From the NCBI RefSeq assembly GCF_055900595.2, contig NZ_CM148325.1: a stretch of 64,000 nucleotides of DNA; one strand, given 5' to 3'. Shown here one piece after another: positions 50,781-52,736 of this stretch (position 1 is the first letter of the stretch; each line of letters opens with the position of its first letter). Below the pieces are notes generated by a model that did no database searches, was not told where the DNA came from, and saw only the letters and a list, made by a program, of their open reading frames with translations. The position numbers and the translations under genes are program-made.

Positions 50781-50867
50781 GCCGAGGTGGTGGAATTGGT
50801 AGACACGCTACCTTGAGGTGGTAGTGCCCAATAGGGCTTACGGGTTCAAGTCCCGTCCTCGGTACCA
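50781..50867 (+). tRNA. leuU: tRNA-Leu (anticodon GAG)
   Basis: 87-nt sequence gccgaggtggtggaattggtagacacgctaccttgaggtggtag...ggttcaagtcccgtcctcggtacca with long variable arm and CCA end; 14 bp after secG; followed by a hairpin/T-run terminator (50880..50905). Confidence 0.9.
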
Positions 50868-51134
50868 AATTCCAGAAAAGAGACGCTGAAAAGCGTCTTT
50901 TTTTGTTTTATATCCCCGCATTTTATTGGCTGGATAACGAGCCCCCTCAACTCCTCTCTCTTTGCCTCCTGACTCCGCATAAATCCTTCAAAATAAGATC
51001 TGAATCACTTTTGTTTGGTAGAGCATATAAGCTAAGTGTAAACATTTTTTCAAAATGATATAGATCAGGACTTCAGTTTTTCTAATGTATAAAATCGCAC
51101 GCCGTCGATATTTACTCTGTTCTTATCTACGGGT

Positions 51135-52736
51135 TTGGGGATGGCTGCACATAACGTATTTCGAAAAATTAAAAATAACTGGCTTATAATTTTTTGTGTA
51201 ATTATTTTTTCTCTGATTAATATCATTGCTTCTTCAGGATCACATCTGGTTCATCGAACACTTTTCTTTGTGCTTTTTATCCTTGTTATAAAACGCACAG
51301 CGTCTTTCCCTTTACGTTTATTATTTGGTATCCCAGTTATGCTGTTGGCTGCTGCGGATCTCTGCATCAGCCTCTATGCATGGTGTACCTTCGGCACCAG
51401 TTTCAATGATGGCTTTGCGATAAGCGTTTTACAAAGTGATCCAGATGAGATTACAAAGATGCTGGGGCTTTATATTGTTTATTGCATTATTTTCCTTGCC
51501 CTGTTCGCACTCTTTTTATCCTCGGTAATAAAATATGATGTTTCGCTACCGGGAAAAAAAATCACAGTGACGTTGTTGCTGATTCTGATTGCGATAAGCT
51601 TATTTTCTTCAGTCAAGTTTGCCCTTAAAGATAAAAAAACAAAGAAAACGGTAGATCCTTATATTGTGGCATCCCGATTCGCAACATATACACCATTTTT
51701 CAACTTAAATTATTTCGCTTTAGCCGCAAAGGAATACCACAGGCTGATGGCCATTGCTGACAAAGTGCCAGGCTATCAATTAGAACTAAGCGATAATGGC
51801 ATCGATGATTATGTATTAATTGTAGGGGAGTCAGTAAGGGCCTCGAATATGTCCATCTATGGGCATAACAGATCGACAACGCCACAGCTCGAAAAACAGA
51901 AGGAGCGTATTAAGCTTTTTACTCAGGCGATAAGCGGAGCGCCTTATACTGCGTTAGCCGTTCCTCTTACTTTAACTGTGGATACTGTATTTGATCACGA
52001 TATCCAGCATTACCCTGACAACATCATTAATATGGCTAATCAGGCTGGGTTTGACACATACTGGCTTAGTGCTCAAGCTGCATTCAGACAGAACGGGACT
52101 GCTGTTGCCAGTATTGCGATGCGAGCGAAAGAAAGAGTCTATGTCAGAGGATATGACGAATTGTTGCTTCCGCATCTGGCTGAGGCATTAAATAAAAAAT
52201 CGCCAAATAAGAAACTGATTGTTCTCCATCTGGTTGGCAGTCATGAACCTGTTTGCGCCACATATCCAGAAGCCAAAGCTGTGTATTATCCATTGGATAA
52301 TCAGGATGCCTGTTATGACAACTCAATTCATTACACCGATAGCATTTTAGGGCAGGTCTTTGCGCTGCTTAAAAATAAGCGAGCCTCGGTTATGTATTTT
52401 GCTGACCATGGGCTTGAACGCGATCCAACGGCAAAACATAGCTATTTCCACGGTGGGAAGAAACCTAGTCAGGAAGCTTATCATGTACCGATGTTTATCT
52501 GGTACAGCCCAATGCTCGGTGAGAACGTTGATCGTTCGACAGTAACTGATATTTTTTCCACTGCTTATAACGACTATCTTATCAATGCGTGGATGGGAGT
52601 TACCCGACCAGAACAACCTAAAACACTTAAAGACGTGATCTCTCACTATCAGGGGGAATCGCGGGTTATTGACGGAAGCCATGAAATGTTTGATTACCGG
52701 GAACTAAGACGAAATTTTAATGCGGACAAGCAGTAA
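51135..52736 (+). CDS. yhbX: YhbX, predicted inner-membrane phosphoethanolamine transferase (sulfatase/EptA-like family)
   Basis: 533-aa ORF with about five N-terminal hydrophobic segments and a C-terminal sulfatase-like domain; markedly AT-rich relative to flanking genes; position between leuU and argG matches E. coli yhbX. True start may lie slightly upstream. Confidence 0.8.
   Translation: MGMAAHNVFRKIKNNWLIIFCVIIFSLINIIASSGSHLVHRTLFFVLFILVIKRTASFPLRLLFGIPVMLLAAADLCISLYAWCTFGTSFNDGFAISVLQSDPDEITKMLGLYIVYCIIFLALFALFLSSVIKYDVSLPGKKITVTLLLILIAISLFSSVKFALKDKKTKKTVDPYIVASRFATYTPFFNLNYFALAAKEYHRLMAIADKVPGYQLELSDNGIDDYVLIVGESVRASNMSIYGHNRSTTPQLEKQKERIKLFTQAISGAPYTALAVPLTLTVDTVFDHDIQHYPDNIINMANQAGFDTYWLSAQAAFRQNGTAVASIAMRAKERVYVRGYDELLLPHLAEALNKKSPNKKLIVLHLVGSHEPVCATYPEAKAVYYPLDNQDACYDNSIHYTDSILGQVFALLKNKRASVMYFADHGLERDPTAKHSYFHGGKKPSQEAYHVPMFIWYSPMLGENVDRSTVTDIFSTAYNDYLINAWMGVTRPEQPKTLKDVISHYQGESRVIDGSHEMFDYRELRRNFNADKQ

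Follow-up and report, generated by a model that had tools for sequence, protein, structure and literature searches.

Among phosphoethanolamine transferases, EptC/CptA adds phosphoethanolamine to a heptose phosphate of the LPS core, and EptA and MCR-1 are lipid A phosphoethanolamine transferases. To our knowledge, YhbX alone among the phosphoethanolamine transferase paralogues of E. coli has yet to be characterised. [quoted passage not shown] Papers that mention yhbX use it as a marker for strain construction, list argG-yhbX among excludons, report it as a match in a knockout screen or give it a predicted GalR site.

The yhbX gene considered here lies between leuU and argG in a stretch of 64,000 nucleotides of E. 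coli DNA (hereafter the window; contig NZ_CM148325.1 of assembly GCF_055900595.2). From its letters alone it had been read as an old, fixed, horizontally acquired gene beside a tRNA. As argued below from sequence comparison, it is likely to be part of a recombinant tract of about 1.9–2.4 kb left when the allele of one species recently replaced that of another, the donor probably being E. fergusonii and the recipient E. coli. In kind, such a replacement event is ordinary.

Composition and layout of the locus

The low GC of yhbX, and of the approximately 270 bp 5′ of it, had been noted relative to glmM, secG and argG, and computation bears this out. The coding sequence has 41.2% GC against 51.9 ± 2.5% in the other 58 genes of the window (z = −4.2), the lowest value of the 59, and the upstream region has 38.1%; the neighbours are normal (glmM 53.4%, secG 49.8%, argG 52.5%). 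GC at third codon positions is 39.1% versus 54.5 ± 4.6% (z = −3.4), and on a CAI-like index trained on the genes of the window itself yhbX scores 0.549, also the lowest value (z = −2.3). The lowest-GC 1885-bp stretch of the 64 kb begins at 50901 and has 40.7% GC versus a window median of 51.5%. The gene is compositionally foreign. It had also been called rich in rare codons. When AGA, AGG, AUA, CUA, CGA, CGG, GGA and CCC are counted, their share is 5.8% versus a mean of 2.3% (z = 1.7), which is above the mean but only moderately so, four other genes exceeding it.

That yhbX adjoins a tRNA gene, on its downstream side, holds as well (Table 1): this is leuU, whose sequence is invariant in alignments of all compared genomes, and the tRNA is the sole match of an Rfam scan of 50200-53000. 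The final bases of the terminator (hairpin and T-run) that follows it are where, in the alignments, divergence from common E. coli begins. A promoter scan found no sigma-70 consensus promoter on the + strand 5′ of the yhbX start codon; its sole + strand sigma-70-like match lies within the yhbX coding sequence. In a near-identical genome the product of that coding sequence is the RefSeq protein WP_077757013.1, ‘phosphoethanolamine transferase’. The GC-rich stem-loop between the convergent stop codons has a folding energy of −20.4 kcal/mol (z = −4.7).

Table 1. Features of the leuU–argG region, in positions of the window
Feature	Position	Strand	Description and basis
secG	50434..50766	+	Left homology arm; annotation
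leuU, tRNA-Leu(GAG)	50781..50867	+	ARAGORN; Rfam tRNA, 52.8 bits; alignment
Intrinsic-terminator hairpin and T-run	50875..50904	+	Ends the secG-leuU transcript; terminator scan, alignments
AT-rich upstream region, 273 bp, 38.1% GC	50868..51140	+	Between leuU and the start codon
E. fergusonii-type yhbX coding sequence, 531 aa	51141-52736	+	Predicted inner-membrane phosphoethanolamine transferase
GC-rich stem-loop CCCTGCCC-ATAAAA-GGGCAGGG	52745..52766	.	Within the 43 bp that separate the convergent stop codons of yhbX and argG
argG	52780..54123	-	Right homology arm
E. fergusonii-type recombinant tract	minimum 50904..52840, maximum 50491-52860	.	Sliding-window identity, runs of informative sites

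Two types of yhbX allele

The name yhbX is right as to family, since the protein is homologous to K-12 YhbX along its whole length and the gene has the same leuU-argG position, neighbours and orientation, but it is not the ordinary E. coli allele. Its product is 69% identical to K-12 YhbX over 531 of 541 residues. Comparison of the two alleles gives a pS of 0.76, which is saturated, and a dN of 0.21, versus medians of 0.106 for dS and 0.0014 for dN in the flanking genes. DNA identity between the window and K-12 is about 70% within the tract and about 99-100% just outside it. With the gene at the same locus of E. fergusonii (record names being as the sources give them), the window copy is 98-99% identical in protein and 99.1-99.2% in DNA. 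The 90%-identity cluster that holds the exact window protein has E. coli and E. fergusonii as its named members, and that exact protein is recorded on 341 contigs.

Over 5426 complete E. coli genomes the distribution of identity is bimodal, with 8 (0.15%) at ≥99% to the window allele, 5193 at about 70% and none between. The common allele is present in 5160 (95%) and neither allele in about 240, one such loss being explained by an IS1-mediated deletion. The allele in the window is hence anything but fixed. With no intermediates, saturated pS and weak sisterhood of the E. coli and E. fergusonii types, the gene falls outside the common E. coli allele as a vertical orthologue.

Four YhbX types were compared (E. 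coli, E. fergusonii, plasmid/MAG and Leminorella), with pairwise identities of 60-69%. They form one clade with 100% bootstrap; its internal order is unresolved, with the E. coli and E. fergusonii types sisters in only 20% of bootstraps. One YhbX subtype is plasmid-borne. In a scan of 100,044 species-representative genomes, peptide words shared by both alleles recovered Leminorella, one MAG and two Providencia and missed E. coli itself; words exact to the window protein had zero matches in the same genomes. Neither scan is therefore a gauge of absence in other genera.

Both allele types are AT-rich, with about 41% GC in the window copy and about 43% in K-12 yhbX. Low GC predates the replacement and characterises YhbX as a family. 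The family has the look of an accessory gene whose ancestry is AT-rich and foreign and whose subtypes, several in number, are deeply separated. With 41-43% GC in both alleles and a patchy distribution, an earlier foreign origin for all of YhbX is plausible.

The host clone, the tract and its edges

On the three loci from which the lineage pattern was drawn, the eight carriers are a single clone in a divergent lineage. At a locus some 2.7 Mb distant (in Z0117EC0005) they are 99.8-100% identical to the genome that is near-identical to the window, and their gltB is 100% identical to that of the window; at these loci about 10 relatives have 97.6-98.8% identity and the remaining E. coli ≤97.2% (≤97.5% when all three loci are taken). 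Published ANI values for cryptic clade I exceed about 98.3% among its members and are about 96-97% against E. coli sensu stricto (PMC10100065). Judged by these identities, the lineage of the clone is probably cryptic clade I. Two relatives, MFDS1022581 and 2013C-4282, have the 541-aa common allele, about 98% identical to that of K-12, in line with the lineage's genome-wide distance, and on either side of it they match the window at 99-100% identity.

Since the closest relatives have the common allele within 99-100% identical flanks, the foreign tract is only about 1.9-2.4 kb. Within it, sliding-window identity is 98-100% to E. fergusonii and about 42-83% to K-12 and the E. coli relatives of the clone. 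On the left, the last informative site of the relatives' type is at 50490 and the first of fergusonii type at 50904, placing the crossover at 50491-50904. The right crossover is between 52841 and 52860, with the last ~60-80 bp of argG of fergusonii type; the rest of argG is 99.7% identical to MFDS1022581 and only about 97% to E. fergusonii and K-12. The same common allele in near-identical flanks of sister genomes makes the window copy a recent replacement of ~2 kb and speaks against its having been called old. As for horizontal acquisition, foreign ancestry and composition uphold it, but what happened appears to be a homologous swap of an existing allele and not the arrival of an island long since fixed.

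In the proposed course of events, crossovers in secG/leuU on one side and in the 3′ end of argG on the other would have let an E. fergusonii version displace, by ordinary homologous recombination, the E. coli yhbX along with the DNA upstream of it and the final codons of argG. Flanks 99-100% identical between E. fergusonii and the divergent E. coli lineage may have eased the exchange.

The location beside leuU calls to mind integration at a tRNA. The 24-nt 3′ end of leuU occurs once in the 64 kb, even with 3 mismatches allowed; the window has no flanking family of direct or inverted repeats, only short repeats at chance level, and the tract has no integrase or recombinase, the transferase being its only coding sequence. 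The earlier remark that there is no integrase or direct repeat is therefore sound. leuU is part of a conserved homology arm, not an integration site. The sequence-only reading had supposed one old tRNA-associated insertion beside leuU, vertically inherited and fixed. It would fit the low GC of both alleles (41% and 43%), the shared locus in E. coli and E. fergusonii, the occurrence of the common allele in 95% of E. coli and a published comparison in which no YhbX is listed for Salmonella LT2 or Citrobacter rodentium. It is nonetheless improbable, and for the window copy it is contradicted: that copy belongs to a minority of 0.15% and shares about 99% identity with E. fergusonii, while the nearest E. 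coli relatives have the other allele in near-identical flanks. Nor does it account for synonymous saturation between alleles against a flank dS of about 0.1, for the absence of att repeat and integrase, or for about 240 genomes without the gene.

Rapid divergence in place, under positive or relaxed selection and with the likeness to E. fergusonii a coincidence, could draw on the high dN (0.21) and on the membrane domain being less conserved between alleles than the catalytic domain (64% vs 73%). It is refuted by the saturation of synonymous sites, by the 99% identity to E. fergusonii and by the fact that the non-coding DNA upstream and the final codons of argG change type together with the gene; the catalytic residues and predicted fold are also intact. 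The chance that it is right is vanishingly small. Equally negligible is an artefact of assembly chimerism or of contamination by E. fergusonii reads, for which there is nothing specific to be said. Identical junctions occur in eight complete genomes that are independent of one another, with different hosts and studies behind them, which refutes it; the exact protein is on its 341 contigs, and sequence is continuous across the junctions, with clean crossover points.

Direction of transfer

Recent replacement between species leaves the matter of which species gave. Most likely the allele would have passed from E. fergusonii, or close kin of it, to the ancestor of a single E. coli clone. In that clone the allele differs by 0.8-0.9% from three E. 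fergusonii copies that differ among themselves by 0.2-0.45%. It thus lies outside them, so the donor may belong to a lineage not yet sampled, or the direction may have been the reverse. The flanks in E. fergusonii themselves look E. coli-like from rplU to truB, its mtgA-ispB being at a dS of about 1.3 from E. coli, and the allele therefore sits within DNA that itself crossed the species boundary. One large import into E. fergusonii from a clone-like E. coli would leave the allele in both species too.

Under the reverse course, the allele went from an unknown source to the ancestor of the E. coli clone and from there to E. fergusonii within a large E. coli-derived block, rplU-pnp. In its favour, dS of E. 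fergusonii versus the window drops from about 1.3 in mtgA-ispB to about 0 from rplU on, and the window has no such step versus K-12, so that E. fergusonii is likely to be the recipient of the flanks; the position of the E. coli allele outside the three E. fergusonii copies also suits it. Against it, the window and E. fergusonii share about 97% identity in argG, right beside the allele, and ≥99% on both sides of argG; no single clone-like fragment accounts for the E. fergusonii structure. Further, E. fergusonii has several protein variants, the E. coli clone being nearly monomorphic, and no third host of the allele type appeared among 5.8 billion protein clusters, in a listing dominated by common-allele E. 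coli variants that mask other Escherichia homologues. On balance the reverse course is unlikely, though less so than an old insertion, and transfer from the E. fergusonii side is preferred.

Two further propositions were tried. That the window had taken in a 20-kb block derived wholly from E. fergusonii was rejected, as E. coli relatives share the flanks and there is no divergence step versus K-12 at the block edge. That the allele is older than the species split, on the ground of saturated dS alone, was softened, as mtgA-ispB of E. fergusonii is also at a dS of about 1.3.

The predicted protein

The product of yhbX had been given an EptA/OpgE-like topology, with about five transmembrane helices and a periplasmic sulfatase domain, and the predictions agree. 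Pfam Sulfatase (PF00884) matches residues 223-474 (E = 1e-51). The AlphaFold2 model (pLDDT 93, pTM 0.90) has five long membrane helices (2-30, 33-51, 56-84, 112-130 and 139-167), with which the hydropathy peaks coincide, two short periplasmic helices, a bridge (helices in 173-206) and a sulfatase-fold domain. Its best Foldseek matches are 6a82, 5fgn and 9nww, the catalytic domains of EptC, EptA and MCR-1 matching at E = 1e-13 to 1e-19; sequence matches in the PDB are EcEptC, NmEptA and MCR-1. Alignment to NmEptA, with what we take to be the EptA residue numbering, predicts E230, T270, H368, D422, H423 and H448 as catalytic residues. All six are identical in both alleles. Across 50 family members E230 and H368 never vary, and conservation of T270, D422 and H423 is at least 90%; H448 is on neither conserved list.

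The C-terminal sulfatase fold, the five transmembrane helices with bridging helix, and the threonine nucleophile with its set of zinc ligands are those of the family, and the protein is predicted from sequence and model to be an EptA/CptA-like phosphoethanolamine transferase of the inner membrane. None of the NCBIfam equivalog models for EptA, EptB, CptA/EptC and MCR-1 to MCR-13 reaches its curated cut-off. The best score is that of CptA (PRK10649), 150.8 bits versus a cut-off of 404, the others being 107 versus 561 for EptA, 106 versus 493 for EptB and 37-68 versus 1075-1250 for the MCR models. In the presumed reaction, phosphoethanolamine would be taken from phosphatidylethanolamine onto Thr270 at a periplasmic zinc site and passed to an acceptor in the envelope. 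Neither sequence nor model gives any sign of polymyxin resistance.

Implications

The case corrects a mis-annotation: what is known of K-12 yhbX, in regulation and in the overlap of argG and yhbX transcripts, is not uncritically transferable to the gene in the window. It is also a clean natural instance of short interspecies allelic replacement with mapped crossovers, in an E. coli lineage that includes human isolates, and it illustrates that low GC beside a tRNA does not by itself amount to island integration. Two natural alleles with the same catalytic residues and 31% of positions different are ready reagents for a search for the YhbX substrate.

Much more speculatively, and at long odds, the leuU-argG slot might be an exchangeable envelope-modification cassette. 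At least four deep YhbX subtypes (E. coli, E. fergusonii, plasmid/MAG and Leminorella) would then circulate among Enterobacterales, differing in acceptor or regulation and swapped by recombination under selection by phages, antimicrobial peptides or hosts, and the swap would have changed the surface chemistry of a diarrhoea-associated, clade-I-like clone.

Comparison with known systems

Likeness to the tRNA islands at leuX, pheV and selC is confined to an AT-rich accessory gene directly 3′ of a tRNA. Unlike them, the tract has no integrase, duplicated tRNA 3′ end or mobility genes, and its edges are homologous crossovers in conserved genes.

EptA of Neisseria (5fgn) and MCR-1 (9nww) align with the window protein over their full length (504-544 columns) and share with it the five transmembrane helices, the periplasmic and bridging helices and the Glu/Thr/Asp/His zinc site. 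Identity is, however, 19-20%, with the EptA and MCR models far below their cut-offs. EptC/CptA of E. coli (6a82/5zzu) leads both the structural matches (Foldseek E = 1e-19, TM 0.78 on the target) and the sequence matches in the PDB, but it is only 23% identical, and at 151 bits against a cut-off of 404 the window protein is no CptA equivalog. The acceptor is not to be inferred from CptA.

K-12 YhbX shares with the window protein its leuU-argG position, direction, domains, catalytic residues and AT-richness (43% GC), and differs from it at 31% of residues, synonymous sites being saturated. It has 541 aa with a 10-residue C-terminal extension, in contrast to 531 aa without one, and the homologues of the stem-loop bases are coding, within that 10-codon extension, in the common allele. 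Its upstream spacer is 458 bp; that of the window, at 273 bp, is 185 bp shorter and alignable to it only in patches. On the other side K-12 has only 7 bp to argG (in K-12 coordinates), whereas the window has the 43-bp spacer with its stable hairpin.

Closest of all is the YhbX of E. fergusonii (WP_196082238.1, QMF17907.1), which has the same length, synteny, upstream region and downstream hairpin as the window copy. The two genes have about 15 nucleotide differences, and the adjoining argG is about 3% different.

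Composition of the yhbX-position gene

The window is the rplM-to-pnp segment of an E. coli chromosome, collinear with K-12 in reverse orientation, and over the 57 kb from 6515 onward just 7 bases distinguish it from E. coli Z0117EC0005 (from a dog in Korea). The gene at the yhbX position is its compositional extreme. GC content is 41.2%, the lowest, against 51.9 ± 2.5% in the 58 other window genes (z = −4.2), GC3 is 39% (z = −3.4), and a codon index built from the window has its minimum there (z = −2.3). The 273-bp spacer upstream has a GC content of 38%, and the lowest-GC 1.9-kb stretch within all 64 kb starts at 50901. 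The AT-richness of the gene and its upstream region, proposed in the sequence-only reading, is thus well above chance on sliding-window GC and codon analysis; the richness in rare codons is present but moderate (5.8% vs 2.3%, z = 1.7). That integrase and direct repeats are absent also holds: a search of the window gave no second leuU 3′ end and no flanking repeat, and the locus has no recombinase gene.

Features of the leuU-argG locus and other sites in the window
Feature	Position	Remarks
dcuC-like gene	2539-3906 (−)	intact; Z0117EC0005 has an internal stop here and a pseudogene annotation
9-bp IS10 target duplication	5177-5185 and 6515-6523	AGCATCACT
IS10	5186-6514	1329 bp, between nanR and nanA; typical outside and inside ends; 406-codon open reading frame with transposase
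gltD-yhcG gap	12285-12467	183 bp
cgtA-dacB spacer	42503-42542	40 bp
tRNA-Leu(GAG), leuU	50781-50867	
secG-leuU terminator hairpin	50875-50904	upstream of the CDS, as is secG
CDS, 531 aa	51141-52736	RefSeq: phosphoethanolamine transferase, WP_077757013.1
argG	52780-54123	downstream, convergent with the CDS
argG mosaic	52861-54333	

A rare allele in E. coli

At the level of sequence, this gene is not the usual E. coli yhbX. Its product is 69% identical to K-12 YhbX (541 aa). Window and K-12 DNA agree at 99–100% as far as the leuU terminator, fall to ~70% identity beyond it and return to 99–100% at the last codons of argG; the upstream spacer is 185 bp shorter in the window. When 5426 complete E. 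coli genomes were searched by megablast, nearly all matched over secG-leuU only and 8 matched across the gene; a sensitive search gave a strictly bimodal result, 8 at ≥99%, 5193 at ~70% and none between. The common allele is present over at least 80% of its length in 5160 of the 5426, and neither type is recognisable in ~240. Contrary to the sequence-only reading, the gene is therefore not fixed, the window's type being confined to 8 of these genomes. In KMi006 yhbX was lost via an IS1-mediated deletion. [L6-21, among the ~240, has an IS1 insertion at yhbX, and one E. coli record is only 80–90% identical to the common allele; a further allele type may exist.]

The replaced tract

At a locus ~2.7 Mb away in Z0117EC0005 the eight genomes are 99.8–100% identical to that genome, and in the gltB region they are 100% identical to the window. 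Some 10 further genomes are 97.6–98.8% identical at these two loci and the remaining E. coli at most 97.2%; over the 8.4 kb left of leuU, 18 genomes are at ≥99% and all others at 97.1–97.5%. Published ANI values for Escherichia cryptic clade I, a group with many ETEC and STEC isolates, exceed 98.3% between clade members and 95.9% against E. coli sensu stricto (PMC10100065), and from the match of the locus identities to these values the window lineage would belong to clade I.

MFDS1022581 and 2013C-4282, two of ten related genomes, have the common 541-aa allele within flanks 99–100% identical to the window, and their allele is ~98% identical to that of K-12, the normal distance for the lineage. 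The window's copy is consequently not the old acquisition that it had been taken for. All other E. coli, the clone's relatives among them, carry the common type, with concordant divergence. It is thus the ancestral allele of E. coli, that of the clone being derived.

Sites separating E. fergusonii from these two relatives were used as informative. From 50904 to 52840 the window has the fergusonii type at several hundred informative sites in a row, and it has the relative type at ≤50490 and ≥52861, so these switches bound the tract to 1.94–2.37 kb. The left crossover is in secG/leuU and the right one 60–80 bp inside argG, and the tract takes in all of the upstream region as well as a 43-bp spacer. 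The latter contains a stable hairpin (−20.4 kcal/mol, z = −4.7), and the bases matching it are a read-through 10-codon extension in the common allele. The gene would have entered on a short fragment, through RecA-type homologous recombination.

Among close relatives argG is itself a mosaic. The window copy is 99.7% identical to MFDS1022581, and in places just 94–97% to 2013C-4282, K-12 and E. fergusonii, with the DNA either side at ≥99%. A second recombination patch, in argG, appears to abut the yhbX tract.

Exchange with E. fergusonii

The exact window protein clusters in a group of 216, of which the named ones are from E. coli and Escherichia fergusonii. E. fergusonii proteins are 98–99% identical to it, and in a collection of 5.8 billion clusters the next-closest proteins are common E. 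coli YhbX, at 70%. The order secG-leuU-gene-argG is also found in several E. fergusonii assemblies, three of which, compared across the gene, are each 99.1–99.2% identical to the window (dS 0.023).

From rplU to at least truB, E. fergusonii is 98–100% identical to the window, and directly left of rplU, from mtgA to ispB, identity is 76–91% (median dS 1.29, median dN 0.031). [In three E. fergusonii loci, L023, L025 and L026, compared with window 23275-60926, the mtgA-ispB divergence far exceeds expectation from genus-level ANI.] Window versus K-12 has no comparable divergence step at the ispB/rplU boundary. The pattern implies interspecies exchange of at least ~21 kb with an edge at that boundary, and since the step is in E. 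fergusonii, with none in window versus K-12, most of the shared flank looks like clade-I-like E. coli DNA within E. fergusonii.

Such imported flanks would provide long near-identical homology easing return transfer of the embedded gene, and the allele probably passed from E. fergusonii to E. coli. The less probable course, though one with an appreciable chance, is that it went from clone-like E. coli into E. fergusonii along with the flanks, which from rplU to truB do resemble imported clade-I-like E. coli DNA. However, argG beside the allele is ~3% apart between window and E. fergusonii while both its sides are ≥99% identical, and E. fergusonii has several protein variants whereas there is almost no variation in the E. 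coli clone.

Depth of the allele split

Between the common and E. fergusonii-type alleles pS is 0.76 (saturated) and dN 0.21; for flanking genes, window versus K-12, median dS is 0.106 and median dN 0.0014. Non-coding DNA is included in the divergent region. In the family tree four subtypes with 60–69% mutual identity (the E. coli type, the E. fergusonii type, that of plasmid pRHB40-C01_2 and an Enterobacteriaceae MAG, and that of Leminorella grimontii) together form one clade with 100% bootstrap. Their branching order is without firm support (E. fergusonii plus plasmid 54%, E. coli plus Leminorella 42%, E. coli plus E. fergusonii 20%). With pS saturated and the E. coli plus E. fergusonii pairing at 20%, the two Escherichia alleles are not simple vertical orthologues.

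Remoter relatives are in Buttiauxella (46% and 40%), Mixta (43%), Microvirgula (36–41%), Proteus (36%) and Providencia (32–34%); a published comparison lists no YhbX for Salmonella LT2 or Citrobacter rodentium. From the scatter of subtypes and relatives the YhbX family is therefore patchy and mobile on evolutionary timescales. This speaks for a foreign origin of the family, but not for fixed, vertical descent since.

The plasmid subtype (438-2099 of locus L027) is 66% identical to the window protein. pRHB40-C01_2 (CP057032.1), from an E. coli isolate of cattle, is a circular replicon of 62 kb and was typed non-mobilizable; the MAG locus L011 has a 94%-identical copy at 3899-5572, with a tRNA-Phe gene ~1.6 kb away. 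A plasmid-borne third subtype could be a vehicle moving the family.

The encoded protein

A Pfam Sulfatase domain occupies residues 223–474. The top NCBIfam models are CptA and generic PEtN-lipid A transferase, with the equivalogs EptA, EptB, CptA and MCR-1 to MCR-13 all far under cut-off. By sequence the closest solved structures are E. coli EptC, Neisseria EptA and MCR-1. Alignment to EptA, by its residue numbering, predicts E230, T270, H368, D422, H423 and H448 as zinc/nucleophile residues, and the catalytic residues are conserved. AlphaFold2, given a family alignment of 50 sequences, produced a confident model (pLDDT 93, pTM 0.90), in which the catalytic domain is accompanied by a bridging helix, five transmembrane helices and two short periplasmic ones; EptC (6a82), full-length EptA (5fgn) and MCR-1 (9nww) lead the Foldseek matches. 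The EptA-like architecture proposed from inspection is thus borne out.

Published work gives no function for YhbX (PMC4013655). The protein may be an active inner-membrane phosphoethanolamine transferase, with phosphatidylethanolamine as donor, Thr270 forming the covalent intermediate, and an acceptor that would be an envelope component distinct from those of EptA, EptB and CptA. Between the two alleles identity is 64% in the membrane domain and 73% in the catalytic domain, and is highest, 85%, in the short periplasmic helices. Speculatively, this pattern would fit an unchanged reaction together with a possible shift in substrate or lipid environment.

Other differences in the window

Window 1-5185 (rplM to nanR) is 99.4% identical to Z0117EC0005, with 30 mismatches, and the remainder 99.99%. 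The IS10 (matching copies carry the RefSeq label ISVsa5) lies 13–21 bp upstream of the nanA start codon, is not in Z0117EC0005, and is at this site in none of the 5426 complete E. coli genomes; it could alter nan operon expression. At the gltD-yhcG gap K-12 has a ~7-kb gltF-yhcADEF fimbrial-type cluster and IS5. The cgtA-dacB spacer is ~185 bp in K-12, a length gap that accounts for a 0.56 bin in sliding-window identity; there the window aligns at 99–100% with its E. coli relatives as well as with the E. fergusonii copies.

Conclusion

The sequence-only observation is confirmed, its interpretation in part only. The window copy is a rare, recently swapped allele common to two species, and both the kind of gene and the kind of event are already known.
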